A stretch of 64,000 nucleotides of DNA from a virus (lineage: Duplodnaviria > Heunggongvirae > Uroviricota > Caudoviricetes): positions 17,384-81,383 of IMG/VR virus record IMGVR_UViG_3300031087_000527. One strand, written 5' to 3'. The translations under genes were made by a program, and so were the position numbers. Below, piece after piece: positions 581 through 63,923 of the stretch (the first letter of the stretch is position 1; each line of letters opens with the position of its first letter). A model generated the notes under the pieces. The model was not told the origin of the DNA. It worked only from the letters and a program-made list of their open reading frames with translations, and did no database searches.

Positions 581-600
581 GCCGCCTTCGGGCGGTTTTT
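581..600 (+). terminator. Rho-independent terminator (example copy)
   Basis: GCCGCC TTCG GGCGG TTTTT directly after the 16..573 stop. Confidence 0.9.
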
Positions 601-667
601 TCATATAAAGGTTGTGACAATAAAGGCGTTCTGCTATAATCAATGGTATTGAAAACAGGAGAACGCG

Positions 668-1021
668 ATGAAAGAGCTTGATATTTTCACTATGGACTAC
701 CTCTTTGAGAATGGTTTTAACGAAGATGGTGGTAAAGTGGTAGAAACGTCAGTTATTGTTGTTGCTGAGGATGTTGAAGGTCGTCGTTTTGCTCTGAACG
801 ATTCGGATTTAACAACGGTAATGATGAGCCTGGAAGAGATTTGGGAGATTCAGAAAAAGCGTATTGATAGGATAACGACGCATCTGGATAACGGTGGGGC
901 ATTGAGTTTGACACACTGGAACGAGATTGATCCTGCGTATGGCTCAGAGGCTTATCAGAAGCTTGACCGGACAGGTTATTTCAAAGAGCTTGAAATCAGA
1001 GCTGAAAACGAATCTTTTTAA
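668..1021 (+). CDS. hypothetical acidic protein
   Basis: Own promoter, AGGAG RBS. Confidence 0.85.
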   Translation: MKELDIFTMDYLFENGFNEDGGKVVETSVIVVAEDVEGRRFALNDSDLTTVMMSLEEIWEIQKKRIDRITTHLDNGGALSLTHWNEIDPAYGSEAYQKLDRTGYFKELEIRAENESF

Positions 1022-1074
1022 CGAAACATCTGATGCCTCATATTCATGGGGCAGCTTAAATTAAGGCTTGAAAA

Positions 1075-1428
1075 ATGAAAAACAAAGTTATGCTGTTCTC
1101 AAGTAATGGTCTGATGTTAAAAGAGATTTCCCATGATAATATTGATGTTATCAATAGCAGGAATATAAAGATCGGTGATAAAGGTGAGATTAGCTGCTGT
1201 CATAATATTTCATTCATAAAAAAAGATCGTAAGCCATTAAATAAGGAAGATCTTCAATATCTGGAAGTTTACGCATATAGCACATTAGTTTTCAAAGGAT
1301 ATGGTATTTATTGTAGCAGTAGGCATAGTGCGCCTTATATCTTTGCAGAGATTGAGGGAGAATTATTTAAGATTGATATTCAAGGAAGTCTTGAGGAGCA
1401 CTTAACCGTTCTGAAGGACTGCGAATAA
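1075..1428 (+). CDS. hypothetical protein
   Basis: ORF co-oriented with neighbours. Confidence 0.75.
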   Translation: MKNKVMLFSSNGLMLKEISHDNIDVINSRNIKIGDKGEISCCHNISFIKKDRKPLNKEDLQYLEVYAYSTLVFKGYGIYCSSRHSAPYIFAEIEGELFKIDIQGSLEEHLTVLKDCE

Positions 1429-1562
1429 AGACAAGAAAGGCTCTCGCTTTGTATTTTAAAGGAGAGCTTTTTTCATTTAAGTTGAGTTTAAAAAGGCTTG
1501 CTTTTATTGTCATAAAAATCTATACTGTCTGTATTGAAACTGAGAATGCTGAGGAAGTGGTT

Positions 1563-2006
1563 ATGATGAGTCCTTTGTTTTTTGTGCTGAAAAATACGCA
1601 GATTCACTCTTATTTTCCAGATAGCGACACTATCACTTTATCTTCCGAGAAGGTAAAGGTGTCGGAAGAAAAGATTGAGATTGATTCAGGCATTTATCCG
1701 GTGTTTGGCTCAGTAGAGGCGGCTATGGAGAGTATTGCTGAACATCTTAAGGGCAAGTATGTCTTTGTTGATGATAATGGTGTGATTCATAACGTAGATA
1801 AAGAAGGTCGTTCAAGCACCTATCTACCAGAATCGGGCAGAATGAAAATCCGCTTTGAGGATGTAGTTGATGCGGGATTCCCCGGTTATAAATCGGTGAG
1901 CTTTGTTGATCCAGAAGGGATTATCGAAGACCAGGGCGACCATGTTGCTTGGGAGCCGGAAGAGTTGGCTGGTCAGCTTGATTGGGCATATAGCGAACGA
2001 GATTAA
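1563..2006 (+). CDS. hypothetical protein (start corrected from 1449)
   Basis: Promoter -10 at 1521, GAGG RBS before ATG 1563. Confidence 0.8.
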   Translation: MMSPLFFVLKNTQIHSYFPDSDTITLSSEKVKVSEEKIEIDSGIYPVFGSVEAAMESIAEHLKGKYVFVDDNGVIHNVDKEGRSSTYLPESGRMKIRFEDVVDAGFPGYKSVSFVDPEGIIEDQGDHVAWEPEELAGQLDWAYSERD

Positions 2007-2109
2007 TAAAAAGAAGCCGCCTCCGGGCGGTTTTTTATTGTTGAAGAATATTGTACTGCATGCTGAAAAAAACTATAATAAAAAAACTTATATTAATGAG
2101 GTATCAGTT

Positions 2110-2688
2110 ATGCATTATTTGCTATCACCATCAGGTTGCAATTCATTTCAACATGATTTTTCCGCCTGTGATCTTCTTTTTGCTGTTAAAGACGTAGAAG
2201 ATTTCAAGAAGCGTTTATTTTACGCGATGGACGATTATGTTGATAAACTTAATAAAAATCAACATGATTGTTCTGGGTTTGTTTTTGAGGGTAAGGAATT
2301 TCCTGAGAAGAGTTTTTTCTTTTACGACAAATTTAATGATTTGTGGTCATGCTATAAGCCAATATTAGTTGAGTTGGTGTCGAAAGATGATTTGGAGTGC
2401 TTCGTAGTAGAGGCTTCTATAGGGACGCGACGTTCTTATTTACCGCCTGGTTACAGAATAGTGTGGGGTGAGAACAAAGCGGTAGTTGAGGCTGAACTGC
2501 AGAAAGCTTATGAGCTATTAAGCGCAGATAGGAAAATTCCTTTTTATTCAATGCTAGGGGCGTATTTTAAAGCAGATGAGATAGTTGGGTATGAGTTTAA
2601 TTCAGGGAATGAGCCTAAGCTAAAACCTTTTAATGCTTTAGGAAGAGTGTTTTCATTAGAGGAATTTTTCTCAAAAGAAGCTGAATGA
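2110..2688 (+). CDS. hypothetical protein, paralog of 2784..3359 (start corrected)
   Basis: MHYLL start; DVEDFK.RLF.AMDDYV shared with the next gene. Confidence 0.85.
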   Translation: MHYLLSPSGCNSFQHDFSACDLLFAVKDVEDFKKRLFYAMDDYVDKLNKNQHDCSGFVFEGKEFPEKSFFFYDKFNDLWSCYKPILVELVSKDDLECFVVEASIGTRRSYLPPGYRIVWGENKAVVEAELQKAYELLSADRKIPFYSMLGAYFKADEIVGYEFNSGNEPKLKPFNALGRVFSLEEFFSKEAE

Positions 2689-2783
2689 TAAGCCGCCTCC
2701 GGGCGGTTTTTGTTTTAATAAACTGTTGTAATCTACGTTGAAAAACCATATAATGACAACAGTTTATTAATGAGGTAGAAACC

Positions 2784-3359
2784 ATGCATTATTTACTGTT
2801 GCCATTTATGGTAGGTTCGATTTATGAAGGCTCTTCAACTGAGTATCTTCGTTTCATTGCTCAAGACGTTGAGGATTTCAAGACGCGCTTATTTTGTGCG
2901 ATGGATGATTACGTTCAGGATCTCAATCAGAAGCGGTGTGGTTATTCGCAGTTTAGCTTTGAGGGTCAGGAATTTCCTGAGCAAGGCTTTTTCTTTTATG
3001 ACATCATTGATGATTTATGGTCGTGTCATGAGCCTGAGTTGATTGAGCTTGCCTCAAAGGAATCTCTGGATTGTTTTATTGTAGAGACAACCATAGGTGA
3101 TGGATGCTCTTATTCGTTCCCATGTTATAAGATGGTTTGGGCTGAGAGCAAAGCTGTGGTAGAGGCTGAGCTGGAGAAAGCTTATGCTGCTTTCCGATCA
3201 GATAAAAGGTTGCGTTCTTATTCAGTGCTGGGAACGGATTTTGAGGCTGATGAGATGGTAGGCTCTGATTATCAAGAAGGTAGTCTAACTAAGTATTATA
3301 ATACTGTAGAGTCAGTATCATCATTAGAAGATTTTTTCTCAAAAAAAGCTACTCTATAG
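2784..3359 (+). CDS. hypothetical protein, paralog of 2110..2688
   Basis: Full-length similarity to the upstream gene. Confidence 0.85.
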   Translation: MHYLLLPFMVGSIYEGSSTEYLRFIAQDVEDFKTRLFCAMDDYVQDLNQKRCGYSQFSFEGQEFPEQGFFFYDIIDDLWSCHEPELIELASKESLDCFIVETTIGDGCSYSFPCYKMVWAESKAVVEAELEKAYAAFRSDKRLRSYSVLGTDFEADEMVGSDYQEGSLTKYYNTVESVSSLEDFFSKKATL

Positions 3360-3409
3360 ACCGCCCCAAAAAAGCTGTTGATTAAGACAATATAAAAGAT
3401 TATACTGTT

Positions 3410-3577
3410 AATGATATTGAGTTTATTCCTCTTATTGGGAATAATCTGAATGAAACCTTCCTTCTGAGTGTTGCTGATTTTGAAGAGTTTAAAAAAGAAG
3501 ATAATACTTTTATTGTATATTCCAAGCTATCTGATAAATGGCTTAAAGACACTCTGGCAGATCTGAAAGGCTATTAA
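3410..3577 (+). pseudogene. C-terminal fragment of a paralog of 24949..25533
   Basis: Frame reads ..DIEFIPLIG..FIVYSKLSDKWLKDTLADLKGY*, matching GYEFVSLTG..YIYKRLPDSWFKDTLRTLKALHQ; no start codon or RBS; abuts a -10 box. Confidence 0.65.
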
Positions 3578-3634
3578 GAAAAGACAAGGAAAAGAGGCTC
3601 AGGCCTCTTTTTTTTTAATGTGGTAAGAAAAAGC

Positions 3635-3680
3635 TTGCCATTGTTGTCATTAAAGTCTATACTGTTTTTATTGAAACGGG
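3635..3680 (+). promoter_or_regulatory. sigma70 promoter with TTGTCATTAA in the spacer (example copy)
   Basis: TTGCCA 3635, 17 bp spacer, TATACT 3658; near-identical module at ~4398-4480. Confidence 0.85.
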
Positions 3681-3707
3681 CGGTTAAACTTTAAAGAGAA
3701 ACCAAAA

Positions 3708-4353: not shown

Positions 4354-4480
4354 TAAGAGATAAAAGCCGCCTCCGGGCGGTTTTGTGTTTAATAGCGTAA
4401 GAAAAAGCTTGTTTTTATTGTCATTAAAGCCTATACTGTTTTTATTGAAACGGGCAGTTAAACCTGAAAGAGAAATCAAA

Positions 4481-5116
4481 ATGCTGAATGAAAAAATCGC
4501 TGGTCTGCTGAAATCACGTGAAGAAGCTGATGTGAAATGTGATGAGGCTCGAAAAGTTCTTGCTTCTGCGGGTAAGGTTCGTTCGGGTATTCAGACGAAG
4601 ATTGCGAAGGCATTTGCTGAGGGTTTCACTGGCAGCGATGAAGAGATTCTGTTCATGCTGGATTGGGAAAACTCAAGCGATGAGATGTATGCGTTTCGCT
4701 CTAAGTTTCTGATTGAAAGAAAACTTGGAGAAGCGGGTTATAACACATCCTCTCGTCAGTATGGCGTTGGTGTAAATCTGTATAATGATGAAGCGGATCT
4801 GCGCGTAGCGGCTGAGGCATTAAAGGATTTATTCCGCGTAATCAAGCCTGTTAAGTGTGATGGATGGGCTGGCAAAGGAACGGAATACGTTAAGGTTGAA
4901 CTGAATGTCTCATCGGTTGTAGAATATGAGAAGTTCAGTGATAACGTTTATCTGGTCAAAGAAGGCGATCTGTACCAAGCTACCACTATCGAGCGCCGTC
5001 ATAATAATGTGATTGTAGGGTGGTCAGAAGATATCGCTGAGGTGATGATCAAGGCGAAAGAATATCTGGAATCACATTATGGTTATCGTGAAGATGATGA
5101 GTGTGATGAAGACTAA
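4481..5116 (+). CDS. hypothetical protein (start corrected from 4385)
   Basis: Promoter 4409-4437, ATG 4481, terminator 5124. Confidence 0.85.
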   Translation: MLNEKIAGLLKSREEADVKCDEARKVLASAGKVRSGIQTKIAKAFAEGFTGSDEEILFMLDWENSSDEMYAFRSKFLIERKLGEAGYNTSSRQYGVGVNLYNDEADLRVAAEALKDLFRVIKPVKCDGWAGKGTEYVKVELNVSSVVEYEKFSDNVYLVKEGDLYQATTIERRHNNVIVGWSEDIAEVMIKAKEYLESHYGYREDDECDED

Positions 5117-5243
5117 ATGAAAGGCCGCCTACGGGCGGTTTTTTTGTTTAGCTCATAAGAAAAAGCTTGTGCATAACTCTTTGTTGTCATATAATGTGTT
5201 TATTGAAAGCGAGTAGAAAATCCATCCGCTATGAGGCATCACA

Positions 5244-5633
5244 ATGACGAATATTAATACTACTAAGCGTGTATCTTTTTCGATTAATAGCGTAGCGATT
5301 TTATTAGTATCTATAGCGATTAGCGCGGTTGTGCATTTCAGTGGCTCTCTCTCTCTTTATCCTGTCATGTATCTGGCTGTAGGATATAGCACTGCGGTAA
5401 CAGCATGGGGTATTTTTTGCTATACTCTTTTCCTTAAGGAAGGTTGTTCTAATCCACAGACATTTTCTTTCAGCACGTCAGAAGTTTTACTTGGTATGCT
5501 TAAGCTGCCATTGCTTCTGATTATTCAAGGTCTGATGTCAAAATACTGGTTTGATATACCGCTTCACGCTGAGATGCTGTGGGTATATGCGGCTATGATT
5601 ATGGCTTATAAAATTCACTTCTGGAAAGTGTGA
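5244..5633 (+). CDS. 4-TM membrane protein, paralog of 5810..6196
   Basis: Hydrophobic; shared TFSFSTSEVLLGMLKLPL. Confidence 0.85.
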   Translation: MTNINTTKRVSFSINSVAILLVSIAISAVVHFSGSLSLYPVMYLAVGYSTAVTAWGIFCYTLFLKEGCSNPQTFSFSTSEVLLGMLKLPLLLIIQGLMSKYWFDIPLHAEMLWVYAAMIMAYKIHFWKV

Positions 5634-5809
5634 GGATTAACTGTTTAAAGCTGATAGAGAGCCGCCTCCGGGCGGTATTTCTTTTTAAGAGAGGCTTATC
5701 ATTAAAGTTTCTTTTAAGATGAAAAGTAATGCTTGTGCATGATTTATTGTTGTCGTATACTGTATTTATCGAAAGTAAGTAGCCAATCCATCCACGATGA
5801 GTCATTAAA

Positions 5810-6196
5810 ATGACAAGTATTAATAATAGCATTACGCGTATATCTTTTGGGATTAACAGCGAATTTGTTTTACTGGTGACTATAGTGATTAGCGTCTTTG
5901 CTCATTATGTTGATGTTTTTCTGCCTTTTATGGTGATTTCAGCATCATTAAGTGTTTGTTTAGCAATATGTGGAATTGTTTGTTATGCGATTTTTCTGAA
6001 CAAAAGTTTTTCTGCTCCACGGACATTTTCTTTTAGCACATCAGAGGTTTTGCTTGGTATGCTTAAGCTGCCATTAGTTCTGATGATTCAGGGGCTGATG
6101 TCGAAATACTGGTTTAATATGTCAGCTTGCTCTGCAATTTTGTGGCTTTATGCGCTTATGCTCGTTGCTTACAAGATTCGCTTTTGGAAGGTGTAA
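5810..6196 (+). CDS. 4-TM membrane protein, paralog of 5244..5633
   Basis: Tandem duplicate including promoter. Confidence 0.85.
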   Translation: MTSINNSITRISFGINSEFVLLVTIVISVFAHYVDVFLPFMVISASLSVCLAICGIVCYAIFLNKSFSAPRTFSFSTSEVLLGMLKLPLVLMIQGLMSKYWFNMSACSAILWLYALMLVAYKIRFWKV

Positions 6197-7363: not shown

Positions 7364-7509
7364 TAAAATGCGAAAGCCTCCGAGAGGCTTGATTAAAAAA
7401 AGTGTGTAAAAGTGAAAATAATACTTGTACAAGACTAAGTGTTGTCATATACTGTATTCATTGAGAGGCGATAAGCCTGAATACAAACTGAAAATCTAAA
7501 GGTAATAAA

Positions 7510-7650
7510 ATGCACAATTCATCTGCTAATCACGTTGAGAAGTTTGGTAAATCTAAGAAAGCAGGTCGTGAGCAGCTTTCTGGAAAGCGTGATAACAAGA
7601 AGCACAATAAGATCGTTCGCGGTCGCCGTGAAGAAGTGGAATACGCATAA
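7510..7650 (+). CDS. 46-aa basic protein not in the ORF track, duplicate of 10087..10227
   Basis: MHNSSANHVEKFGKSKKAGREQLSGKRDNKKHNKIVRGRREEVEYA; own promoter, AAGGT RBS; many synonymous differences from the second copy. Confidence 0.85.
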   Translation: MHNSSANHVEKFGKSKKAGREQLSGKRDNKKHNKIVRGRREEVEYA

Positions 7651-7915: not shown

Positions 7916-8109
7916 ATTACAGATAGCCGCCTTCGGGCGGTTTTTGTTTTAAGAGAGCCTTGTCATTAAGAAATTGTGTCTTGTTTTGCTTTTATTGTTG
8001 TCATATAATAATCTGATTAAACGAGACGAGGTGCGTCATGACTGAGTATGAGAAGACGATACGGAAGCTTTTAGCTGAAAATTCATTGCTGAAGCTGTTT
8101 GAAATTATA

Positions 8110-9698
8110 GCAACGAACGCAACATGTTAAACATATTTGATTTTTCTTCTTTTTTATTATAATATTCTTTTATAAATTACGGGGATATTATGACGCAGAC
8201 TTGTTTTATTAAACACGATTATGACAGAACGGTTCAGCCCTTCTGGAATGATCAGTGTCATAAAATGTCTCAAAACCTTTTTCTGCCCTACACCGAAAAT
8301 AACATTTCTAATTTTAACACTCATTACCTCTCTTCTTTGATCCGTAAACTTACTCCCGTTCATTCTTATCACTTTCCTTTATCCTTTAAATCCTGTGTTA
8401 TTTCTACGCCTGACATCATCGTTAAAGCCGTAAAGAAAGTGCGTTTTTATTTTACCTCGTCTGAGCAAAAACGTAAGTATGAGCAAATGATGATGGTGGC
8501 TCGCAGAGCCTACAATCTTGCGGTTGATATGTGTAACAACAGAGAATATATTGATGAAAATGGTAAGCCTGTTGATATCAGAATTCCTATCAGAGATAAA
8601 GTAAGGAAAGAAAGTGCTGAGAATAATCATGTTTTTGATACCAATGTTTGCGATCAGGCTGTCAGGATAGCCAAGTCTGAGTTTATTACTCTGTGTAAAA
8701 ATAACAAAAAGAAGAAGAAAAATACAACATCATTCACAGCTTTCTCACGACTAGGCTTTAAAAGCCGGAAAGACAAAAAACAGACCTTTGCTCATCCCCG
8801 GATGGGAAAAGAGGGTTCGGTCTGTATAAAATCGTTGGGAAGCATCAGGCTGACGGAAAAGCTGCCTGATGAATGTTATGGTAAGAATGTTGATGTAACA
8901 ATGGATCATGGCAGATGGTTTATCTGCGTCCAGGAAAATATAGAGATAAAACGAAACCGTTTAGATTGTTCCGAAAGCCAAGGTCCAGATAAAAAGGTTT
9001 CTGAAAAAGAAGTAAAAGTTATAGCTCTTGATCCGGGGAGCAGAACGTTTCTAACCGGATTCAGCGAGAAAGAAGTTATCGTGTATGGTAAAGATTATTC
9101 TATAAAATGCTTACTACCATTGGCGAAGAAGATGCGTAAGCTGTATTCTTTGCGTGAGAAGTTAAAGAAGCATGAGCTATACAAAAAGGAAATCTCGGAT
9201 AATCCGCAGTGGATAAACGATACGTTGAGACATATAGAAAACAGCCTGAACAGGCTGTCCTGCAGGCGTCAGGATCTTGTTAATCATCTGCATAGGACCG
9301 TGGCTCATAATATAATGATGAGCTACGATGTGATTTATCTTCCTGATTTCGAAACTAAATCGATGGTGAAGACTAAGGGAAGAAAAATAGGCCGTAAGGC
9401 GGTTCATAACATGCTTTCCCTGAGTCATTATATTTTTAAGGAATTTCTGCTGTGGACAGCGAAGAAATACGGTAAGGAAGTCATTATCGTTAACGAGAGT
9501 TATACAAGTAAAACTCAAAGCTGGAACGGAGTAGTAAATGAAAAGCTGGGTTCATCGAGGGTGATGAAAGACGGTAAAAGAATAATAGACAGAGATATCA
9601 ATGGTGCAAGGAATATTTATCTTAAGCACATATCTCAGTTAGCTAACATTTAGGTGCTTCGCCTTAGCCGGAACTGCGAATGCTGTTGCGTTCGTTGC
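8110..9698 (+). mobile_element. Non-autonomous TnpB-only element (IS607-related), 1589 bp, 15-bp terminal inverted repeats, no target duplication
   Basis: GCAACGAACGCAACA 8110-8124 / TGTTGCGTTCGTTGC 9684-9698; removal restores the host ORF (1-nt G ambiguity at the junction). Confidence 0.85.
8190..9653 (+). CDS. tnpB: TnpB-family RNA-guided nuclease, Fanzor2-like (pro-Fanzor) type
   Basis: RuvC-I ALDPGSRTF; canonical RuvC-II Glu replaced (IYLPDFET) with a shifted Glu in VNESYTSKT; RuvC-III DRDINGARNI; N-terminal PFWN..S..LFLP; no CxxC zinc finger. Confidence 0.85.
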   Translation: MTQTCFIKHDYDRTVQPFWNDQCHKMSQNLFLPYTENNISNFNTHYLSSLIRKLTPVHSYHFPLSFKSCVISTPDIIVKAVKKVRFYFTSSEQKRKYEQMMMVARRAYNLAVDMCNNREYIDENGKPVDIRIPIRDKVRKESAENNHVFDTNVCDQAVRIAKSEFITLCKNNKKKKKNTTSFTAFSRLGFKSRKDKKQTFAHPRMGKEGSVCIKSLGSIRLTEKLPDECYGKNVDVTMDHGRWFICVQENIEIKRNRLDCSESQGPDKKVSEKEVKVIALDPGSRTFLTGFSEKEVIVYGKDYSIKCLLPLAKKMRKLYSLREKLKKHELYKKEISDNPQWINDTLRHIENSLNRLSCRRQDLVNHLHRTVAHNIMMSYDVIYLPDFETKSMVKTKGRKIGRKAVHNMLSLSHYIFKEFLLWTAKKYGKEVIIVNESYTSKTQSWNGVVNEKLGSSRVMKDGKRIIDRDINGARNIYLKHISQLANI

Positions 9699-10086
9699 GG
9701 GTTTAATGAAGAGTCTGTATTGGATTGGGCGAAAGCGGTGGATGAGGCTGCTTTTAATCAACATGGTGAGATATTCACTGACAGCGTTGAGAGTGCTCAA
9801 GAAGAGCTGGCTACGTTGACGCCTGAGACTGATAAGTTGCTTGAGGATGTGCGCAAAGAAGGCGTTAGACGCTATGCTGAGCATTTAAAAGAGTCGGGTC
9901 AGCATCATGGGATGGCTGCTCAGGTGTGGGACTATCTGAATCGGCGAGTTAAAGTTGGAAAGCTGAAACGGTAATTATTTTCTGGAAATGAAAATAATGC
10001 TTGCGCAAGATTTATTGTTGTCATATACTGTATTCATTGAGAGGCGAGAAGCCTAAATACAAACTGTAACTTAAAAGGTAATAAAA

Positions 10087-10227
10087 ATGCATAACTCTTC
10101 TGCTAACCACGTTGAGAAGTTTGGTAAGTCTAAGAAAGCGGGTCGTGAGCAGCTTGCTGGAAAGCGTGATAGTAAAAAGAAAAACAAAACTGTTCGTGGT
10201 CGCCGTGAAGAGGTTGAATACGAATAA
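10087..10227 (+). CDS. 46-aa basic protein not in the ORF track, duplicate of 7510..7650
   Basis: MHNSSANHVEKFGKSKKAGREQLAGKRDSKKKNKTVRGRREEVEYE; duplicated promoter and leader. Confidence 0.85.
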   Translation: MHNSSANHVEKFGKSKKAGREQLAGKRDSKKKNKTVRGRREEVEYE

Positions 10228-10267
10228 GTAAAGATGGAAGAGCCACCTGCGGGTGGCTTTTTTGTTA

Positions 10268-10516: not shown

Positions 10517-10658
10517 ATCCTTTCCTTATTTAAAATGTGATATGTGTAGAATATATGACCAAAAGAAAAAATGCAATTCGATGATAAAAGGCGACTAAAA
10601 GCATTGCAATTGTTGTCATCAATAGCTATACTGTTTTTCTACCCCAAAGGAGCATATT

Positions 10659-10964: not shown

Positions 10965-11110
10965 ATAAAATAACCTTAAAGGCCACCTCCGGGTGGCTTT
11001 TTTATTTTCTGGTAAAAATGAAAAAAGTGCTTGCCTCTGTTGTCATTAATGCGTATACTTCTTTTATCGAAACGAAACTGATTGTTAACTCACTTTAGAG
11101 AGAAAATAAA

Positions 11111-11962: not shown

Positions 11963-12111
11963 ATCTTAAAGCCGCCTCCGGGCGGTTTTTTTCTTTTTAA
12001 GAGAAGCATTACAGTAAAATAGCATTAAAAAGCTTGCACTTATTGTCATTAAATCGTATACTATTTTTATCGAAACGAGAGACTCTTCTCTCTCTGTAAA
12101 AGGAAAGTAAA

Positions 12112-12339: not shown

Positions 12340-12474
12340 CAAGCAAAGCAGCCGCCTCCGGGCGGTTTTTCCTTTTAAGAGAGGCATTCCAGTAAAATAG
12401 CATTAAAAAGCTTGCATGTGTTGTCATTAGGTCATATACTGTCTTTATCGAAGCGAAATACTGAGGAGTTAAAA

Positions 12475-12735: not shown

Positions 12736-12864
12736 TAATTTAAAGCCGCCTCCGGGCGGTTTTTCTTTTTAAGAGGGGCATTTCAGAAAAATGTATTTAA
12801 GATTTTGATTGAATATCATAGGCTAAACTATTAAAATAACAAAAATCTAAAAGGAAACTTTATT

Positions 12865-13608: not shown

Positions 13609-13727
13609 TAATAAAAAGCCGCCTCCGGGCGGTTTTTGTTTGTAAAGCGTCTTGATTGTATTGTCATTAAATAGTATAATGTTGCTATCAAGCCAATAAT
13701 TGGTTGGCCTCTAAATAGGAAAACACT

Positions 13728-13925
13728 ATGAGCGTTGAGTTTACTAATATGACATACGAGAGCCAGTCTGGAGCGGTAGCAGGTAAGGTTCAGACGACGG
13801 CTAAAGGTGCTGATATTTTTATTCGTAGTCAGGAAGATGCGCGTTTGGATTGGGAACTTCATAGCAGTCATGAAAATGAGAGTGATGCCCGTGAGCTGTT
13901 AGGAGAACTTTTAGAGTATTGTTAA
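13728..13925 (+). CDS. hypothetical protein
   Basis: Promoter, RBS, terminator. Confidence 0.8.
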   Translation: MSVEFTNMTYESQSGAVAGKVQTTAKGADIFIRSQEDARLDWELHSSHENESDARELLGELLEYC

Positions 13926-14028
13926 TAAGCCGCCTCCGGGCGGTTTTTTATCGAATGAAGAAAATAAGTGTTGCTATGTATTGTCTTTAAAGGCTATACT
14001 GTTTGTCTTAACAGGGCTGGAGATTATC

Positions 14029-15019: not shown

Positions 15020-15070
15020 TAGGGGCCGCCTGCGGGTGGCTTTTTTATTGTCAATAAAATAAGGTAATAT

Positions 15071-16543: not shown

Positions 16544-17095
16544 ATGAAAATAGATTGGAAAGCAATGACTCTTCAGATAGATAAAAATCTGGCAAGTTTG
16601 CCGGATGAAAATACGCTGGAGAAAAGTTTGGCTAAGTTTATGAATAAGATTGACGAGCGACTGCAGGATCATGCTGAAGGTAAAGATGTGCTTGATATTG
16701 GTATGAGTTTTGAGACACTGGAAGCGCTGGTAGATAAAGATGGTGTAGAAACAGGCAAGCGTGTGCTTGATGAGACACAGACATACTATTTTCTTGATGC
16801 TAACGGTATGCCATGCCTGAGCGGTAAAGTTGTTTCTGACTTATTTTATCAGTATTATGAAGAAATGATAGGCAACAGTAATAATGCGGAAAAATATAAG
16901 GATATCAATCCTGAAAATCTGTTATTTAAAGTAACTTTCCATGAAGAAGGTGCTTCGGGAGGTTTGTTGCGGCGCTTACTGGTGAAATCAACCAATACTA
17001 TTTATATAGCGTCATTTGAGTCTTTTAAGGAGTCATTTGATAGCTTAACTGGTGTTATGGAAGATGTTAAAGTAATGGAAAGTGTTGAAGCATAA
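16544..17095 (+). CDS. hypothetical protein
   Basis: GAGGT RBS. Confidence 0.8.
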   Translation: MKIDWKAMTLQIDKNLASLPDENTLEKSLAKFMNKIDERLQDHAEGKDVLDIGMSFETLEALVDKDGVETGKRVLDETQTYYFLDANGMPCLSGKVVSDLFYQYYEEMIGNSNNAEKYKDINPENLLFKVTFHEEGASGGLLRRLLVKSTNTIYIASFESFKESFDSLTGVMEDVKVMESVEA

Positions 17096-19468: not shown

Positions 19469-19562
19469 AAAGCCGCCTTCGGGCGGTTTTTTATTATAAA
19501 AAGCTTGTGCCATCCTCTGTGTTGTCATATAATAGCTTTATTGAAACGAGAGGAAAAACATC

Positions 19563-44004: not shown

Positions 44005-44110
44005 CATTAAGCCGCCTCCGGGCGGTTTTATTTTACGTAAGATGGTTGTTTTTGTTGTCATAATTTGCTATACTGTTTTTATTGAAATGGCTGAGAGAGA
44101 AGAAGATAAA

Positions 44111-44488: not shown

Positions 44489-44660
44489 GCCACTCGACAG
44501 TAGCCGCCTCCGGGCGGTTTTTCTTTTTAAATCTTTACGAAGTCTCCTATTGCTTTTGTTATAAAAATCAGCTTGCCGAAGATTCTTATCAGTATCATTA
44601 CAGTATTTTCTGCTAAGCTTTACGGCAAACGCTCTCATGCTAATAAGAAAAGCATTATGG

Positions 44661-46550
44661 CTTAATAATATATTTGATTTTGCTCAGTATTTATTGTATC
44701 GTTTTCCCATAAATAAAGGATAAACTTACTGTGGCTCAAGCTAAAGATACTCGCGTCATTACCATTAATGCTAAAGTTAATGCATCCGCTTTCACAGCGG
44801 ATGAAGCCGCTTTTCTTAATGAGTATCTCAACCACTATAATCACATCAAGTTTATCACCGCCTCTAAAATCAAAAAGAAATCCCTCACCGGGCTTTCTAT
44901 TAGCCAAATCAAATCCCTCTGCGACAGAAACGATATATTACCATACCGTATTTTCAACGCGGGATTATACCAGCAGATCCACGGACAGATTAAGTCTCAG
45001 TTATCGAATAAGGAAAACTATCTTGATAACGTCAGGGATAAAATCAAATCGGTAGAAAAGAAGCTGCAGAAGCAGCTTAATACCGTGATTTTAATCAACA
45101 GCATGACGCCTGTTCAGAGAAACTACGCTGCTAACCGCAAGCGGTTAGCTAAAGCTGTTGTTAACTCAGCAACCTACCGCAATCAGCTTCTTCGATTACG
45201 CTCGCGTGAGCAGAGGCTGAGTCATGAGATAGCCAACGGTGATTTTAAAATCTGCTACGGCTCTGCCGGGCTGCTGAGTAAACGAAACCGTATTCACGTC
45301 AATGACAAAGAAAAGCTGAGTTCATGGAGAAAACAATGGAACGCTTTACGCTACGGTCAGATGTTATTCGTTGGCTCAACCGATGAGCTGCTGGGCAACT
45401 CAAATGCCAATATCGCTCTGGATGAGAATAACCAGTTTATTCTTAACATAACCGTTCCTGTTTCAATGAAAAAACAATACGGTTTTTCTAAGGTGTCGGT
45501 TCCGGTTAAGGTTTCCTATTATACTGAAGAGCTGAAAAACCATATTGATTTCCATCTTTATTGTAAAAAGGCGTGTAAGCATACTAAAGCGGAAAAAGAA
45601 GCGGCTAAGGCCAGAGGAAAAGCGCTAAAGGTTCCCACGTCTTCGCTTTCCATCAGGCTGATGAGAAATGCGAAAGGGGACTACGATATAGGGATTGGTC
45701 TTAATACAAGTCTGGAGCGCAGGCCTGAGCTTAAGACGGTAGAGGGTTATGGTCTGATTGGTGTGGACATCAATCCAGACCACCTGGATGTAGCTGAGAC
45801 GGATGCTAAGGGGAACTACCTGAGAGGTTGGTCTGTTCCTGTGGATTTGAAAGATAAGTCAACAAAACAGCGCAAAACGATACTCAGTCAGGCGACGAAG
45901 AGCATAGTGGACTATGCTCTGAGCGTGGGAAAGAGTGTGGTGATTGAGGATCTGGATTTCACGAAGAAAAAGAAAGCATTAAAAGACAACTATAATAAGC
46001 ACTATGCGCGGATGCTGTCGGCGTTTGCGTATGGTAAGATCAGGGAGTATTTTACGGGTCAGTGCTGGCGGTTAGGTGTAGGTTTACTGGCGGTAAACCC
46101 GGCATATACGAGTTTTATCGGAAACGTGAAATACAGGTCAAAGATAACACCTGAAGCGAATAAGCATACGCCAGCGGCGTATGTGATAGCGCGAAGGTGT
46201 CAGGGATTTGGTGAGAAATTTCCTGAGTCGGTGGTAAGGTTAAGAAAGGTTAAAAAAGAAAACGTAGACGTTTTAATGGCAGAGCAGGTACTACTGAGAG
46301 AGATAGGAGCTGACGGAGGAAAAGCGAGATTTTCCAATTTAAAACGACTACAAAAGAAGGCATATGGTAATGGCAGAGACCTTGAGATATCAAGTATGCG
46401 ATTACAGAAGATGCCGGGTCTTAATGGTATTCCGTTATGCCATGAGCTATTTGTATCCAACCGCTACGCGTTTGGATGCGGGAGCTTGAAATAAGTATTT
46501 TAGACGCTGATTGCTCACGTGATCAGATTTGTATAGTTTAAAATAAACGG
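44661..46550 (+). mobile_element. Non-autonomous IS607-type TnpB element, ~1890 bp, GG at both junctions
   Basis: Left flank ..ATTATGG, right end ..AAACGG; removal restores psiE; no tnpA. Confidence 0.8.
44731..46494 (+). CDS. tnpB: TnpB-related RuvC protein (long IS607-associated type)
   Basis: IGVDINPDH, VVIEDLDF, VNPAYTS.IG..KY, H-TPAAYVIARR (His at RuvC-III); no Zn finger. Confidence 0.85.
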   Translation: MAQAKDTRVITINAKVNASAFTADEAAFLNEYLNHYNHIKFITASKIKKKSLTGLSISQIKSLCDRNDILPYRIFNAGLYQQIHGQIKSQLSNKENYLDNVRDKIKSVEKKLQKQLNTVILINSMTPVQRNYAANRKRLAKAVVNSATYRNQLLRLRSREQRLSHEIANGDFKICYGSAGLLSKRNRIHVNDKEKLSSWRKQWNALRYGQMLFVGSTDELLGNSNANIALDENNQFILNITVPVSMKKQYGFSKVSVPVKVSYYTEELKNHIDFHLYCKKACKHTKAEKEAAKARGKALKVPTSSLSIRLMRNAKGDYDIGIGLNTSLERRPELKTVEGYGLIGVDINPDHLDVAETDAKGNYLRGWSVPVDLKDKSTKQRKTILSQATKSIVDYALSVGKSVVIEDLDFTKKKKALKDNYNKHYARMLSAFAYGKIREYFTGQCWRLGVGLLAVNPAYTSFIGNVKYRSKITPEANKHTPAAYVIARRCQGFGEKFPESVVRLRKVKKENVDVLMAEQVLLREIGADGGKARFSNLKRLQKKAYGNGRDLEISSMRLQKMPGLNGIPLCHELFVSNRYAFGCGSLK

Positions 46551-46570: not shown

Positions 46571-47109
46571 CTGATCGGAACATTCCATTATCTCGGCTTG
46601 TTCATGATTGGTGGTGTCGTTATTTGGGCGTCTATCATTGAGTTGTGTCATGTTTTGGATATGGGCAAGCCGGGCATTGAAAACGTGCTAACGCTGTTCA
46701 TTTATCTTGAGTTAGGCGCAATGGTAGGGGTTTACTTTAAGACAAACCATTTGCCTATCCGGTTTATCATTTATATTGCTATAACGGCTATGACGCGTCA
46801 TCTGATTGGCCTGATTACCGATCATGGCGAAGATTTCAGAGTTATTGTGTTTTACTGCGTAGGCATTCTGGTATTATGTGGTTCTTTATGGCTGCTCCGA
46901 TACGCTTCATTCAAGTTTCCCTCAGAACGTGTGATAGAAGTGAAGCCGGACGGGAAAACAGTTGAGAAAGTCAAAGATGACGAAGTAAAGATGCCCTAAA
47001 CTAACAAGCCGCCTCCGGGCGGTTTTTTCATATCGCGGTAAAAAAAGATTGACGTTGTTGTCATTAAAGCCTATACTGTTTTTATCGAAACGAGAATGGG
47101 ATTGTCAAA

Positions 47110-48909: not shown

Positions 48910-49006
48910 TCTATAAAATCGCAAGATTTTTCTTGCGGTTCACTTCTTGTTGTCATATAATCTTTCTATCGAAACAAAACACTCATTCCACACTATAGGT
49001 AAACAC

Positions 49007-49639: not shown

Positions 49640-49726
49640 TAAAGCCGCCTTCGGGCGGTTTTTTGTTGTGCAAGAATCCAAGAAAAGATATAATAGAGAC
49701 AACATAATAAACATCTTGAGGAAAAA

Positions 49727-50254
49727 ATGAAGAACAAAGAGCTTATTGAACGTGTTGTTATTGCGCTATCGCAATCTGCATCTGAGCATAAGTTTTTCCT
49801 CAATGGAGGTTGCTCAAAACTGGTCGAGTATTTCCTTCCTTTTCTCAGAGAGTGCAAAGTTATTAAGCTTGCTGTTTTTGTTTATGCCAGAAGTCCGCAA
49901 GAGCAATCAGCATTAAGAAAAACATTGAGTGAGTCTCAGGAAGAGGATTTGCTGAGGAAAATAGAAGGCTTTGATATTCTAATCGATCACATTGCTCTTT
50001 TAAATGATGGGATGATTTATGATGCGCATGGCATCACTGAAAAGGAAATATATCAGCAGGAAATCATGTTAAGTAATAACTTTATGGAAGTAATAGAGTT
50101 TGAGTCTGATGACTATCTTGATGCTTTTATGAAGGCAGTATGTGGAAGTCATATTCATGGAAAAACGAGTAAGAAAGTGATTCAAAATAAGGTGGGGCGA
50201 GCAGTTAATCGCTGGATGGAGCAGAGTGAGCGGGTTGAGGATTTTGCCATTTAA
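49727..50254 (+). CDS. Cys-His-Asp triad protein
   Basis: NGGCSKL, DHIAL, IYDAHG. Confidence 0.65.
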   Translation: MKNKELIERVVIALSQSASEHKFFLNGGCSKLVEYFLPFLRECKVIKLAVFVYARSPQEQSALRKTLSESQEEDLLRKIEGFDILIDHIALLNDGMIYDAHGITEKEIYQQEIMLSNNFMEVIEFESDDYLDAFMKAVCGSHIHGKTSKKVIQNKVGRAVNRWMEQSERVEDFAI

Positions 50255-50331
50255 GAGAGTTAATCATTAAGTGTTTTTTGTTGTTTACATTAAAAGACTA
50301 TGGTAAAATAATGCTTTAATCCTGAGAGGAA

Positions 50332-53937: not shown

Positions 53938-53989
53938 TTTGCTAAGGCAAGAAAGATAATTATAAAGCCGCCTTCGGGTGGCTTTTATT

Positions 53990-56751: not shown

Positions 56752-56903
56752 ATCTACAGGCCGCCTCCGGGCGGCTTTTATTTTGATGAGAGATATTCAT
56801 TTTAAGATAAAAGAGCAATCAAAAGAAATAAAATGCTTGCATAGAAGTCAGAAATCCGTATAATGACAACATACAAACAGTCATTCACTCTTAAGGGTAA
56901 AAA

Positions 56904-58048: not shown

Positions 58049-58915
58049 ATGAAAGCGACAGAAACTACGATTGGCGAAGTAAAAAAAGTGTTCGGCGTAT
58101 TCTACGCTCTTGAAGCTAATGATGGTTTTTTGGGTGAAAAAGCGCGACAAACATCAGTAGACTTTAGGCGTATTCTGTATACTGATTTTCTTTTAACCTT
58201 TGATGAAAAGGTTAACTTCCACTATCAGGTTTTGACAGGACAGTTTAAACAAAAAGGCGGCTACGTCAAGGCAACTGAGCGGCTCTATAACCAATATGCG
58301 CAGTGGCACGATGATAATGATCGCTACTGCAACACGCTGGATGATTTAAAGCTGTCTGTATTTAATGAATATCAGGGCATCTTCGAGCATTTCATGAAGC
58401 AAAATGAGAACTTTTTTATTTTCAGAACCCTGAAAAAAGAAGGATGGCGTAAAAATCTGCTGCTTAAAACAGATATTGGTCAGAAGGTTAACTTCCTAAT
58501 TACGCAACGCGAGGCGTTAAAAGGTAAAACCTGTGATGATCTGGTTAAGGTAAGACTGACGGCTGAGTATAGTTCGGATAATACAGCGGTTATTGTTCCT
58601 GCTGGTTTTGAGCGTTTTGCTAATGCTGCAATGGTTGATGCTTACGTCATCTATAAAGATAAGATGCTTCCTGTTCAGACTTATCTTCATAGTGTGCGTT
58701 TTGATGCCCGCGCAGAGGTGTTAAACATGAAGTTTGAGACGCCAGAAGGTTGTGGCTTCAACTTCCATACCTTTACGCTCAAAGATGGCAAGTTTGTGTT
58801 TGATGACGGCGTGCTGTTTTTTGAAAAGCAGGATGCTTACAATGTGGCGCGTATGCTGATTGAAGACGAGCAGAAACGTCTGGATGAAATGCGGTCGCAG
58901 TTAGAAGCAGTCTGA
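58049..58915 (+). CDS. hypothetical protein
   Basis: 288 aa, promoter, terminator. Confidence 0.85.
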   Translation: MKATETTIGEVKKVFGVFYALEANDGFLGEKARQTSVDFRRILYTDFLLTFDEKVNFHYQVLTGQFKQKGGYVKATERLYNQYAQWHDDNDRYCNTLDDLKLSVFNEYQGIFEHFMKQNENFFIFRTLKKEGWRKNLLLKTDIGQKVNFLITQREALKGKTCDDLVKVRLTAEYSSDNTAVIVPAGFERFANAAMVDAYVIYKDKMLPVQTYLHSVRFDARAEVLNMKFETPEGCGFNFHTFTLKDGKFVFDDGVLFFEKQDAYNVARMLIEDEQKRLDEMRSQLEAV

Positions 58916-59033
58916 TAAGCAGATCATAAAATAAAGCCGCCTCCGGGCGGTTTTTGTTTTTTTAAAAAAGACTTGCTTATGTTGTCATTAATAGGTATAC
59001 TTCTTTTATTGAAACCACTGAGAGATAAAAAGA

Positions 59034-61688: not shown

Positions 61689-61800
61689 AATGAAAAGGCC
61701 GCCTCCGGGCGGTTTTTTTACATAAAAATCTTGCCAATATTGTCATTAAGGCGTATACTCGCTTTATCAAATCGACGCATATCTTTTTAAGGTGAAAACC

Positions 61801-62418
61801 ATGTTTTATACAGCGAGTCTTAATGATAACAACCTGAATGCTATTGATGTTGTAAACGTCTTGTCTCATGTTGAGCATGAATATGACATAGCTTTCACGC
61901 GTGAGTCATCTGCTTGGCTTAAGAACGCTAAGGTTGATATGCGTCGTCTTTTTCTTAACGGTAAAATGACGCGTTTTTGGCTGACGGCTGGCGGTGAAAT
62001 TTTAAAAGAAGATAAGATTAAAACCGCTCCAGGCTTGATCAAATGGGATAAAGCTGAATGTAAATATGTGGTTCTTCATGGGAAGAAGGGAGATCTTCAA
62101 TCAAGCGTATCGCTTGCCGATATCATGGCAGAACATTTTCTTTTAGAAGGCGCACCTATTGGGGCTTTTGAGATTTCTTTTAAAAACGCTAAGAAATCTA
62201 AAAACATGTGCGCTTTAGAAAATCTTATTGTCGAGAAAAAAGGTATTGGCACAGTGGCTGTTAAGAAGGCGGTTAAAGTGCTGCGAAAAGGCCGTTTCTA
62301 TGCGTATTATGATAGCGTTAATGCCTGCGCCAAAGACATTGAGATTCCAAGTCGCAAGGTGAGCGAAATGGCAAAATCAGGTGAAGCCTATAAGCATTTT
62401 ATGGTAGCATACTGCTAA
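61801..62418 (+). CDS. protein with a C-terminal NUMOD1-like HTH
   Basis: YDSVNACAKDIEIP...VS...K.G..YK. Confidence 0.6.
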   Translation: MFYTASLNDNNLNAIDVVNVLSHVEHEYDIAFTRESSAWLKNAKVDMRRLFLNGKMTRFWLTAGGEILKEDKIKTAPGLIKWDKAECKYVVLHGKKGDLQSSVSLADIMAEHFLLEGAPIGAFEISFKNAKKSKNMCALENLIVEKKGIGTVAVKKAVKVLRKGRFYAYYDSVNACAKDIEIPSRKVSEMAKSGEAYKHFMVAYC

Positions 62419-62441
62419 GGTTGAATAAAAAGAGAGGCGTT

Positions 62442-62645
62442 ATGTTTAAACTAAAGGCGATTTATCAGGAAAAAGACTTATTTGGCGCTATTTGCGGCTA
62501 CTCTGGCGACAGCTTTTCCAGTGATTCAGATGAAAAGCGGAAAAAGAGTAAGCAAAAAAAAGACTCAAAGAGTGAGCCTGACAATAATAGTGATGTGATT
62601 GTTGCTGCGATTGCCGCTGGTATGATTGTATCAACACTGGAATAA
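62442..62645 (+). CDS. small hypothetical protein
   Basis: GAGG RBS, terminator. Confidence 0.65.
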   Translation: MFKLKAIYQEKDLFGAICGYSGDSFSSDSDEKRKKSKQKKDSKSEPDNNSDVIVAAIAAGMIVSTLE

Positions 62646-62724
62646 CAAAACCGCCTCCTGGCGGTTTTTTGTTGTGCATTAAGTGTAAAACTGATATAAT
62701 CATCATTCATAAACAGGAGGCGTT

Positions 62725-63096
62725 ATGTCTAAAAATATTTCAGCTGATCAGACGTTTAACTTTAAAGTTTACCTCTATGCGTCACTGGCGTTTTTCCTGC
62801 TGGCTTCACTTTTTCAAAGCGATCTTGTGATGGGCTTTAGCGTTGCGGCGGCATGGGCGTGTGTCGTATTTGGCATCATTAAGTACGGCGCTTTGCTGTA
62901 TCGGGTATTTGCTGAGAAGAAAGATTATGTTTTGAGTTTAAAAGAGTTCATTCTGACAGCAAGTGTATTCCCGTTTTTGTTGTTTGTATTAAGCGCAAGC
63001 CTAAGAGAAGCAACACATAGCCAAGCGCTCCCGGCACTGATAATGCTTCAAGGACTAATGATGTTCGCATTTACCCTAAAAGATTGGAAGCCGTAA
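62725..63096 (+). CDS. 4-TM membrane protein, distantly like 5244/5810
   Basis: Hydrophobic pattern; C-terminal WK. Confidence 0.8.
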   Translation: MSKNISADQTFNFKVYLYASLAFFLLASLFQSDLVMGFSVAAAWACVVFGIIKYGALLYRVFAEKKDYVLSLKEFILTASVFPFLLFVLSASLREATHSQALPALIMLQGLMMFAFTLKDWKP

Positions 63097-63156
63097 TGTT
63101 GTCATTATGATGGAGTCTTGCTATAATGACAGTATAGAAACCATTAGGGCTTTAAA

Positions 63157-63846
63157 ATGAACCTGAACCTGAACCTGAAGACATATAAGGCGATTTCTGG
63201 ATTAAACCGTGCTGGTGTGCTTTGGCATGGTTTATCTTCTGAGAGAGCGTTAGAGGCGCTTAAAAACGGCTTTATTAAGCCTCACTCGGTGCAGCGCTTT
63301 TGGTCTGATGGGATGTTTTACAGTGACGATCAGCCTGAGTATGATTCATCCTATTGGGCTAATGGCTGGTGCATGAGCCGGGATAAGCTGGTTGCTGAGA
63401 AGTTTGCGGCTTGCGGTGTATTGTTTGCGTTTAATATGAGAGCCATCAAAGAGACATTCAAGGTCGTTCCTTACTCATGGGCGGGTGCTATCCCACGCTC
63501 AACAGCACAGACGCGCAAAAGCGAACGTGAAGAGTATGTGTTAAGTGGTGGTATCTGTGAGTCAGAAGCCTTTTATCAGGCGAAATCAGATGAGATACAA
63601 GCTCAGATAGCACGGGTTAATGCTCAACGCAAAGTAAAAGAGATAAGCCTGGCTGAGAAGAAAAAGCGCGTAGCTGAACTTGAGGCTCTGGCTAAGGTAA
63701 GCACATTCAATCATCATTTCTATCAACCACATGGCAGGAATATGTCTTTAGCAAATGCGTTTGGTTTCTTTATCACTGAGAAACGTCCAAATGATGATGT
63801 TTGTGCCGAACTTGAGAAACATCCATTATTTTTAGGTTATCTGTAA
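63157..63846 (+). CDS. putative ADP-ribosyltransferase-fold protein
   Basis: LWHG, CMSRD..VA.KFA, EREEYV. Confidence 0.55.
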   Translation: MNLNLNLKTYKAISGLNRAGVLWHGLSSERALEALKNGFIKPHSVQRFWSDGMFYSDDQPEYDSSYWANGWCMSRDKLVAEKFAACGVLFAFNMRAIKETFKVVPYSWAGAIPRSTAQTRKSEREEYVLSGGICESEAFYQAKSDEIQAQIARVNAQRKVKEISLAEKKKRVAELEALAKVSTFNHHFYQPHGRNMSLANAFGFFITEKRPNDDVCAELEKHPLFLGYL

Positions 63847-63923
63847 AAAAGACTTGTTATTGTTGTCATTAAAACGTATACTTCTTTTATTGAAACGACA
63901 CATTAATCCTTGAGGGGATGAAC

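Follow-up and report, generated by a model that had tools for sequence, protein, structure and literature searches.

A PeSL-like array of predicted terminators and promoters at a subset of gene gain and loss junctions in an uncultured huge phage lineage

Introduction

Promoter-early stem-loop (PeSL) elements have been described in the phages RB49/phi1, PST/T4 and nt-1/KVP40, where a stem-loop is followed by an AT-rich tract, sigma-70-like -35 and -10 boxes, a Shine-Dalgarno sequence and an ATG (PMC2839356; PMC4122927). RB49 and phi1 contain 51-52 PeSLs each (PMC2839356). The elements sit mainly in hyperplastic regions rich in ORFans, go with insertions and deletions (indels) between close relatives, and can yield mini-circles, with crossovers at varied points in the element (PMC2839356; PMC4122927). 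In T4-type phages such circles are found in about 1 in 1e5 virions (PMC2839356). In the idea behind PeSLs, joints of terminator and promoter that recur along the genome allow a phage to gain, lose and rearrange small accessory genes while these stay expressed. Here we analysed a 64,000-bp stretch of viral DNA (the window), G000:C1:17384-81383, in which a terminator-like hairpin and a promoter module recur along one strand; G000 is the 259,022-bp IMG/VR virus record IMGVR_UViG_3300031087_000527, and window positions are used unless stated. A previous sequence-only reading had proposed that these modules form a plug-in platform for gene exchange. We conclude, with a probability of roughly three in four, that they constitute a PeSL-type array of early transcription units, whose signals are constrained by function and also serve as recombination substrates.

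Other described systems share single features with this array. In 1988 Tuerk et al. reportedly found CUUCGG/UNCG tetraloop hairpins in the intercistronic regions of T4. Integron cassettes are promoterless, require IntI and recombine at attC. Rak2-like jumbo phages (CBB, GAP32) have RpoD-like early promoters with UP elements and an early region of short open reading frames (ORFs); CBB has just 18 RpoD-like promoters. Rak2-like phages also have a promoter class with TGAAACG, a motif that acts as a -35 in CBB (PMC5259590).

Results

Terminator hairpins and promoter modules recur across the window

The sequence-only reading counted about 35 near-identical hairpins in the window, and these are real. 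GCCGCCTNCGGGCGG occurs in 26 copies at up to one mismatch, each on the + strand, where shuffles predict 0.01, and in 32 copies at up to two mismatches, while a generic scan for a hairpin plus a run of T residues (T-run) returned 43 + strand terminator-like sites. A dedicated terminator scan of the first 20 kb gave 33 sites on both strands against 11.6 expected. With their short G+C stem, C(UNCG)G tetraloop and following T-run, the hairpins are predicted Rho-independent terminators, and folding of five representatives gave -15.7 to -18.4 kcal/mol (z -3.7 to -5.0). Most terminator-like sites lie 4-34 nt past a stop codon and are followed by the T-run. Five hairpins (581, 2016, 13929, 15025 and 44503) stand directly 3' of small ORFs absent from the crude gene calls; the remaining sites have no called ORF end directly upstream, and one predicted site falls inside a TnpB ORF.

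An IMG/VR pattern scan with the module revealed two related contigs, and a second IMG/VR scan added none. G002 (134,908 bp, GC content 0.398), a close relative at 85-93% identity, is collinear with G000 1,150-145,065 at 80-98% identity. G001 (341,648 bp, GC 0.306) has 301 of 464 crude ORFs in common with G000, at 23-95% protein identity (about 50%). Metagenome scanning contributed short pieces near G000 (L044, L047) and two G001-like contigs (L045, L046); a metagenome scan with alignment A1 and a scan of genome contigs gave no further relatives. C(UNCG)G hairpin terminators number 89 in G000 (+ strand), 84 in G001 and 66 in G002, and the 57 core-family hairpins of G000 are concentrated at genome 6-90 kb. 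An identical 16-nt hairpin, GCCGCCTCCGGGCGGT, has 18 copies in G000 and 12 in G002. The commonest form varies by lineage, being GCCGCC-TCCG in G000 and G002 (18 and 12 copies) and GCCACC-TTCG in G001 (8 copies), and at each stem pair the sites of the three genomes show compensatory G-C, A-T and C-G changes.

The promoter pattern TTGTCATTAA-N4-TATACT matched 19 times in the window at up to three mismatches, against 1.1 expected. Module copies were assigned to class A (17 copies of a 60-nt module, 60-87% identical to the reference copy) or class B (14 copies), and a class A profile search gave 59 matches in G000, exclusively on the + strand; the window holds 31 of these. The module consensus (A-tract, cTTGnnn, 17 nt, TATACT) has the proper spacing and UP-like tract of a sigma-70-type promoter, as which we predict it to act. 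Transcription would start about 7 nt after TATACT, at the A of ATTGAAACG. Since a conserved TTTATTGAAAcg begins 3-4 nt past the -10, i.e. at about +1 (examples at 4440-4452, 12065-12077 and 47080-47092), some 30-60 early mRNAs would share the start AUUGAAACG.

The most conserved part of the module in G000, G002 and the 31%-GC G001 is a TgTTGTCAT box (examples at 4415-4424, 5185-5191 and 25877-25883), located 8 nt upstream of the -10 in class A and abutting it in class B. This box and TTTATTGAAAcg could be the binding sites of one putative phage or host factor that switches about 60 early promoters together. Such shared control, and not recombination, would then keep the modules alike; this reading is compatible with a PeSL-type array. 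The high information content of the box in all three genomes and its class-dependent position relative to the -10 are consistent with such a regulon, as is the TGAAACG promoter element of Rak2-like phages (PMC5259590). No candidate regulator emerged, however, and in some promoters TTGTC(A/T)T stands 17 nt from the -10 (sequence at 25850), where it may simply be the -35 itself. We therefore regard the regulon as possible, with odds clearly short of even. Overlapping tandem promoters with TTGTCA as the -35 were rejected, as the spacing suits just some copies.

Seventeen terminator-to-module composites, spaced at 3-78 nt, have a discernible A-tract, -35, -10, ribosome-binding site and ATG. According to the sequence-only reading, hairpins were usually followed by a promoter module within about 100 bp. 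This applies to promoters in the wide sense, with any TTGnnn-N16-18-TAnnnT found within 130 nt at 35 of the 43 sites; the specific module lies within 120 nt at just 17 of them. Units of one to three genes, also described there, make up 33 of the 44 terminator-delimited units, while seven units hold 4-18 genes, and 72 of 118 intergenic gaps are without a module. The array does run through the window but also extends past it, over roughly genome 6-90 kb of the 259-kb record.

The comparison with PeSLs drawn in the same reading is apt: both the composite structure and the concentration in an ORFan-rich region are found here. Its view of a far larger version of the known analogues has to be corrected, as 51-52 PeSLs in RB49 and in phi1 compare with about 59 promoter-module matches and 89 C(UNCG)G hairpins in G000. 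The scale is similar to that of known PeSL arrays, not far larger. CUP repeats of IncN plasmid leading regions had been named there as a second analogue; no plasmid features were seen.

The signals are conserved between relatives

Despite the 8-point GC gap that separates G001 from G000, the hairpin family and the extended promoter consensus are common to all three genomes. Between G000 and G002, orthologous identity over the first 90 kb was 0.933 for terminators and 0.915 for promoters, compared with 0.870 for other intergenic DNA and 0.813 for third codon positions. Because orthologous sites outdo third codon positions in conservation and the consensus is kept in G001, the modules are, as judged from these alignments, under purifying selection and would be working transcription signals first. 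Paralogous promoter copies are just 60-87% identical, compared with 91-93% for orthologous modules, which indicates that module likeness is upheld mainly by selection and not by recent copying. The same figures left concerted evolution of the modules unsupported.

Near-duplicates of promoter plus leader precede unrelated genes at 3608-3707 and 4382-4481 (86% over 100 nt) and at 11988-12084 and 12366-12462 (97 nt, 86%). A further duplicate of about 240 nt (7410-7650 and 9986-10227, 86-87% identity) comprises a class B promoter and a gene 5' end, the second copy being truncated, and some module sub-families have additional common sequence past the T-run. That module likeness might arise from function alone had been named as an objection to the original proposal. 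Function largely explains it, given the 31%-GC relative and the purifying selection, but a few sub-families have 97-113 nt in common at about 86%, more than any plausible functional core.

Module repeats lie exactly at some indel junctions

G000 and G002 differ over 145 kb by 34 indels or replacements of at least 100 bp, 18 of which are in the window; 27 are in the first 90 kb, where modules abound, and the following 55 kb hold the other 7. The relatives are thus not simply collinear, and the proposal that recombination between modules inserts and deletes genes was not refuted by this comparison. Twenty-four of the events are clean indels, and six of these have an in-register junction repeat scoring at least 11, positioned exactly at the junction. 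The repeats join terminator to terminator (window 13637/13928, 26 nt; G000 10631/11131; G002rc 12491/12805), promoter to promoter (G002rc 11371/11852, 32-44 nt; G002rc 118013/118723) or lie in the post-terminator T-run (window 49669/50273). In simulations, 0.27 in-register events were expected for random length-matched intergenic pairs (Poisson p=4e-7), and 0.66 when both ends were forced near modules (Poisson p=7e-5).

Further module-flanked events are an extra tandem cassette in G002 between 113-nt terminator-plus-promoter direct repeats, a terminator-to-terminator replacement (window 10227/10982), a gene inserted directly before hairpin 32699 in G002, and a promoter -10 repeat (G002rc 7343/7648). 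About 10 of the 34 events have module sequence at both ends. Individual crossover points fall in the hairpin, the T-run, the -35, the -10 or the leader, and this scatter favours general or short-homology recombination over a site-specific enzyme. Taken together, the modules are best read as substrates of recombination in between about a quarter and a third of the events that added or removed genes. Three of the indel events are TnpB insertions; G000 encodes six TnpB ORFs, at window 8190-9653 and 44731-46494 and at G000 83039-84682, 144487-146130(-), 175300-176760 and 223089-224852(-).

Neighbouring genes with a module between them are less often collinear in the distant relative

G000 neighbours have remained collinear in G001 in 7 of 30 cases with a module between them, compared with 24 of 39 without (p=0.003). 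For the window alone the figures were 3 of 18 and 14 of 27 (p=0.03), and the direction was the same in every sub-region tested. Almost all G000-G001 nucleotide homology blocks are single genes, and blocks from different places in G001 overlap or abut inside modules at 47072-47092 (21 nt, from the -10 into the leader), 3610-3633 and 4364-4366. A truncated cassette noticed near 3410 in the sequence-only reading is genuine: promoter and leader are followed by the last ~55 codons of a gene that is intact in G001. The signals exist, are constrained, and lie at a significant subset of indel and rearrangement junctions.

Recombination substrates or transcription punctuation

Several observations weigh against a role of the modules in gene exchange. 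About 70% of the indels lack module sequence at both junction ends, and in 18 of the 24 clean indels in-register junction homology is at most 9 nt. Breakpoints are strongly non-coding (50 of 68, against 20% expected, p=3e-21), and of the non-coding ones 46% are no more than 40 nt from a module, where 35% would be expected (p=0.07); the raw enrichment is thus mostly one of intergenic location, as selection alone would give. In the G001 clade, seven indels found on comparing L045 and L046 with G001 had no junction repeat as long as 8 nt. Gene-by-gene nucleotide identity between G000 and G002 is a mosaic, ranging from 67% (16544-17095) to 99.9% (58049-58915), which implies frequent gene-scale exchange with other lineages, but identity jumps are no larger across modules (p=0.26), and we rejected modules as the boundaries of this mosaic. 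The recombinase RecA/UvsX was not found in the incomplete record. Finally, the tandem paralogs of the window, which had been offered as support, are old (29-54% protein identity) and similar arrays are equally common where modules are absent, as in the run of ORFs at G000 200.6-207.2 kb; we dropped them as evidence of module-driven duplication. The gene pair at 668/1075 is not paralogous at E 1e-5.

These points could be accommodated if the modules were pure transcription punctuation: cassette-shaped indels would then result from selection against broken genes and signals, and module homology would have no causal part. The intergenic bias of the breakpoints, their lack of significant proximity to modules within non-coding DNA, the purifying selection on modules kept even in a 31%-GC relative and the module-independent mosaic all agree with this. 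However, a working terminator under selection needs no in-register join, and in-register module junctions were found in 6 of 24 clean indels where 0.27, or 0.66 with ends near modules, were expected. The overlaps of G001 blocks also fall inside modules. We consider punctuation without recombination unlikely, and prefer a PeSL-type array in which the signals also recombine.

Unlikely alternatives: a targeting factor, mobile modules or site-specific cassettes

The array might instead be a dedicated platform, as the sequence-only reading suggested, but nothing favours a platform over a by-product of repeated transcription signals. In its strongest form, a phage factor would recognise the hairpin or the box and start region and target the joints, either for recombination or as a master switch of about 60 promoters, giving an integrase-free platform over about 90 kb of a genome of at least 369 kb. 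Such a factor would be the reason why the hairpin or the box and start region are kept identical at about 50% protein identity and across an 8-point GC gap. We think this very unlikely.

Modules could also be small mobile elements, such as mobile promoters or elements resembling miniature inverted-repeat transposable elements, that spread independently of genes. The 97-100-nt promoter-plus-leader blocks that stand, 86% identical, before unrelated genes would fit, as would the sub-families with common sequence past the T-run. Terminal inverted repeats and target duplications are, however, both absent, and with paralogous copies mostly at 60-80% and orthologous ones at 91-93% identity there is no sign of a recent burst; moreover, the modules have a single orientation and an exact regulatory position. 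This makes independent mobility highly improbable.

We give next to no credence to a dedicated site-specific cassette system, integron-like or novel, in which a phage enzyme takes the hairpin or TTGTCAT box as its site: the many identical GCCGCCTCCGGGCGGT hairpins and five junctions at or in hairpins would suit it, but crossovers are dispersed over the module, a tyrosine recombinase is in none of the three records, the sole serine recombinase (G000 224930-225313) lies beside the 223-kb TnpB, far from the array, and is absent from G001 and G002, and the hairpins are plain 5-10-bp UNCG stems with T-runs and compensatory variation, unlike attC sites.

A larger phage genome is the probable source of the record

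G000 has a GC content of 0.387, a strongly positive GC skew and genes nearly all on the + strand. Pfam matched just 8 families across 107 window ORFs, and PHROG matches were chiefly to families of unknown function. Isolated proteins resemble those of Rak2-like (CBB, GAP32) and KVP40-type jumbo myoviruses at 32-38% identity, and for one G000 protein CBB and GAP32 were the top cultured-phage matches (35-38%). Gp23, Terminase_6N and tyrosine integrase (Phage_integrase) gave no match in G000, G001 or G002, all of which are incomplete, trimmed records, and DNA_pol_B and RecA gave none in the trimmed G000 and G001. Against 50,697 phage records, neither megablast of a 12-kb stretch nor blastn of one module gave a relevant match or any DNA similarity to cultured phages; tblastn of two large ORFs against phages yielded no useful match.

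All three records (259, 342 and 135 kb) are labelled 'provirus' in IMG/VR. G002 has the exact coordinates of bases 1-134,908 in a metagenome contig of 368,640 bp, and its cut matches the point in G000 where the tRNA array starts. Because G002 is cut from this contig, the labels seem to reflect the trimming of a huge phage genome. G000, too, was probably cut out of a larger genome, and we read the window as part of the accessory, probably early, arm of a phage with a genome of at least 369 kb.

The standard genetic code suits the ORFs of G000, the longest of which has 663 aa. An alternative code was considered for the lack of longer ORFs and rejected: TGA or TAG readthrough changed little (longest frame 722 aa), and only TAA readthrough lengthened frames. 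The tRNA genes, about 21-25, all lie outside the window, and an Rfam search found no family in the window and tRNAs alone elsewhere in G000. Two loci stand out among them, L010:8667-8740 (G000 248,866-248,939) and L005:14072-14148. One tRNA has the anticodon CTA, of the amber suppressor type, yet the standard code suits the ORFs; ARAGORN read another with a four-base anticodon (agaa), and duplicated tRNA genes include Arg-tct (five) and Met (three).

Other genes were noted in passing. The window encodes DUF808 and PsiE proteins and an HNH-type homing endonuclease (28855-29820; phrog_559, E 7e-69) with relatives in many jumbo phages; G000 also encodes an M49 peptidase. G000 200,565-207,213 holds a row of seven ORFs (350-368 aa each), of which five or more are paralogous to one another (27-41% identity); the gaps between the ORFs are 8-15 nt long and free of modules. 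The 31%-GC G001 has genes for a MutS of bacterial type (837 aa; 42% identity to that of Salmonella; L034:10516-13029) and two tandem GtrC-like O-antigen conversion proteins (L031:18409 to L032:1631).

Table 1. Positions of predicted signals, cassettes and other features in the window.
Feature	Position	Strand	Remark
Terminator hairpin GCCGCC-TTCG-GGCGG with T-run	581-595	+	
Terminator hairpin, TCCG loop	2016-2030	+	
Terminator hairpin	2692-2706	+	Left breakpoint of 835-bp G000-only segment is 29 nt downstream
Segment missing in G002	2736-3570	+	Paralog gene 2784-3359 and truncated cassette; junction repeat absent (3 nt)
Truncated cassette	3360-3611	+	Promoter and leader, then last ~55 codons and terminator (3590-3611); gene intact in G001
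Promoter module with leader	3617-3707	+	
Terminator hairpin	4366-4380	+	Two G000-G001 homology blocks abut at left edge (4364-4366)
Promoter module class A with leader	4391-4481	+	
Terminator hairpin	5124-5138	+	Extra tandem cassette in G002, with 113-nt terminator-plus-promoter direct repeats
Promoter modules class B	5157-5209; 5723-5775; 7971-8023	+	TTGTCA abuts -10
Terminator hairpin	5661-5675	+	Between tandem paralogs 5244-5633 and 5810-6196
Terminator hairpin, TACG loop	6580-6594	+	
Promoter module class B	7415-7467	+	Within ~240-nt duplicate of 9986-10227
Terminator hairpin	7926-7940	+	
TnpB (IS605 OrfB-type) element	8099-9706	+	Inside a gene; absent from G002; module-free indel
Promoter module class B	9991-10043	+	Heads truncated duplicate ending at terminator 10242
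Terminator hairpin GCCACC-TGCG-GGTGG	10242-10256	+	Left end of terminator-to-terminator replacement relative to G002
Promoter module	10586-10645	+	
Terminator hairpin GCCACC-TCCG-GGTGG	10982-10996	+	Right end of replacement starting at 10242 hairpin
Promoter modules class A	11013-11072; 12016-12075; 12394-12453	+	
Terminator hairpins	11971-11985; 12351-12365; 12745-12759	+	
Terminator hairpin	13618-13632	+	Left copy of 26-nt direct repeat around one-gene cassette
Promoter modules	13634-13693; 13954-14013	+	
290-bp cassette (promoter 13634-13693 and 65-aa ORF)	13638-13927	+	Absent from G002; junction in register inside terminator repeat
Terminator hairpin	13929-13943	+	Right copy, 26-nt repeat of 13618 hairpin
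Terminator hairpin	15025-15039	+	
Terminator hairpin	19472-19486	+	Insert of ~131-135 nt before promoter in G002 and L047
Promoter module class B	19495-19547	+	
Terminator hairpins, GCCACC variant	20999-21013; 25850-25864	+	
Promoter module class A	21850-21909	+	
Terminator hairpin, GCTGCC variant	26569-26583	+	
Terminator hairpin	31245-31259	+	
Terminator hairpin	32699-32713	+	In G002, extra gene between upstream stop codon and hairpin
Promoter module class B-like	38134-38186	+	
Promoter modules	42725-42784; 44028-44087	+	
Terminator hairpins	43343-43357; 44503-44517; 47008-47022	+	
Terminator hairpin	44011-44025	+	Left breakpoint of 2.5-kb G000-only segment (one cassette and TnpB element)
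Promoter module class A	47031-47092	+	Overlap of two G000-G001 blocks at 47072-47092
Promoter module class B	48923-48975	+	
Terminator hairpin	49644-49658	+	T-run is start of 603-bp G000-only cassette
603-bp G000-only cassette	49670-50272	+	12-nt direct repeat; starts in T-run of 49644 hairpin
Terminator hairpins	53967-53981; 56760-56774; 58936-58950; 61698-61712	+	
Promoter modules class A	58955-59014; 61713-61772; 63836-63895	+	
Terminator hairpin, ACCGCC variant	62650-62664	+	

Discussion

We propose that the window belongs to a hyperplastic, ORFan-rich early region in the genome of an uncultured huge phage. Host-type, sigma-70-like early promoters and Rho-independent terminators would divide most of its genes into self-contained units, each with one or two genes and a promoter and terminator of its own. 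With sequences of 15-110 nt repeated dozens of times in the same direction, the modules would also lend themselves to recombination, homologous or based on short homology, when the phage replicates or two phages infect one cell. Such recombination could delete, insert, duplicate and re-join whole units and leave expression unbroken. The activity of the promoters and terminators, the early timing of the units, the enzymes that would recombine the modules and any circular intermediates are predictions from the sequence.

The array is best read, by analogy, as the PeSL arrangement in a probably different and much larger phage lineage than the T4-type phages. This extends the PeSL idea to an uncultured huge-phage lineage without detectable T4 core genes in the available sequence. 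It also supplies a figure missing from the original PeSL papers: of the clean indels between close relatives, roughly one in four is joined in register within module sequence, where about 1% would be expected, and the modules take no part in most of the others. The conserved promoter offers a way to locate the early genes of this lineage, for host takeover and anti-defence, and the TTGTCAT box and conserved start region are concrete targets for regulation studies.

Comparison with known systems

Like integron cassettes, the units are small, mostly single-gene and in one orientation, and are gained or lost individually. Unlike them, they carry their own signals, their junctions are not at one site, and no Phage_integrase match was found in G000, G001 or G002. 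As in Rak2-like phages, promoters of host type with an A/T element ahead of them are grouped where many short hypothetical genes follow one another, and the TGAAACG motif is present; here, however, the motif follows the -10, and CBB promoters have no described recombination role. This likeness may serve as a lead. The extra-stable C(UNCG)G loops between phage genes recall the UNCG hairpins of T4, from which they differ in that one stem family is reused dozens of times and is tied to T-runs as predicted terminators.

The closest match is with PeSLs. They differ from the present modules in the phages that carry them (here a probably different lineage, with no T4 hallmark in the incomplete records and a relative whose source contig measures 368,640 bp) and in their stems, which are polyG/polyC or A/G-runs, whereas the C(UNCG)G hairpin here is near-invariant. 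The -10 here is TATACT, and the PeSL description includes neither a TTGTCAT box nor a conserved +1 region; promoter and terminator activity and mini-circles are predicted here by likeness. In both systems, however, a stem-loop is combined with an early promoter in tens of copies, 51-52 per RB49 or phi1 genome and about 59 promoter matches here, within a hyperplastic region of small ORFans. In both, crossovers are scattered over the module, in PeSLs over the loop, the AT-rich tract and the interval between the -10 and the ATG. Single ORFs are inserted, deleted or replaced between close relatives at or near PeSLs; in the present lineage a subset of events is of this kind, and most lack module homology.

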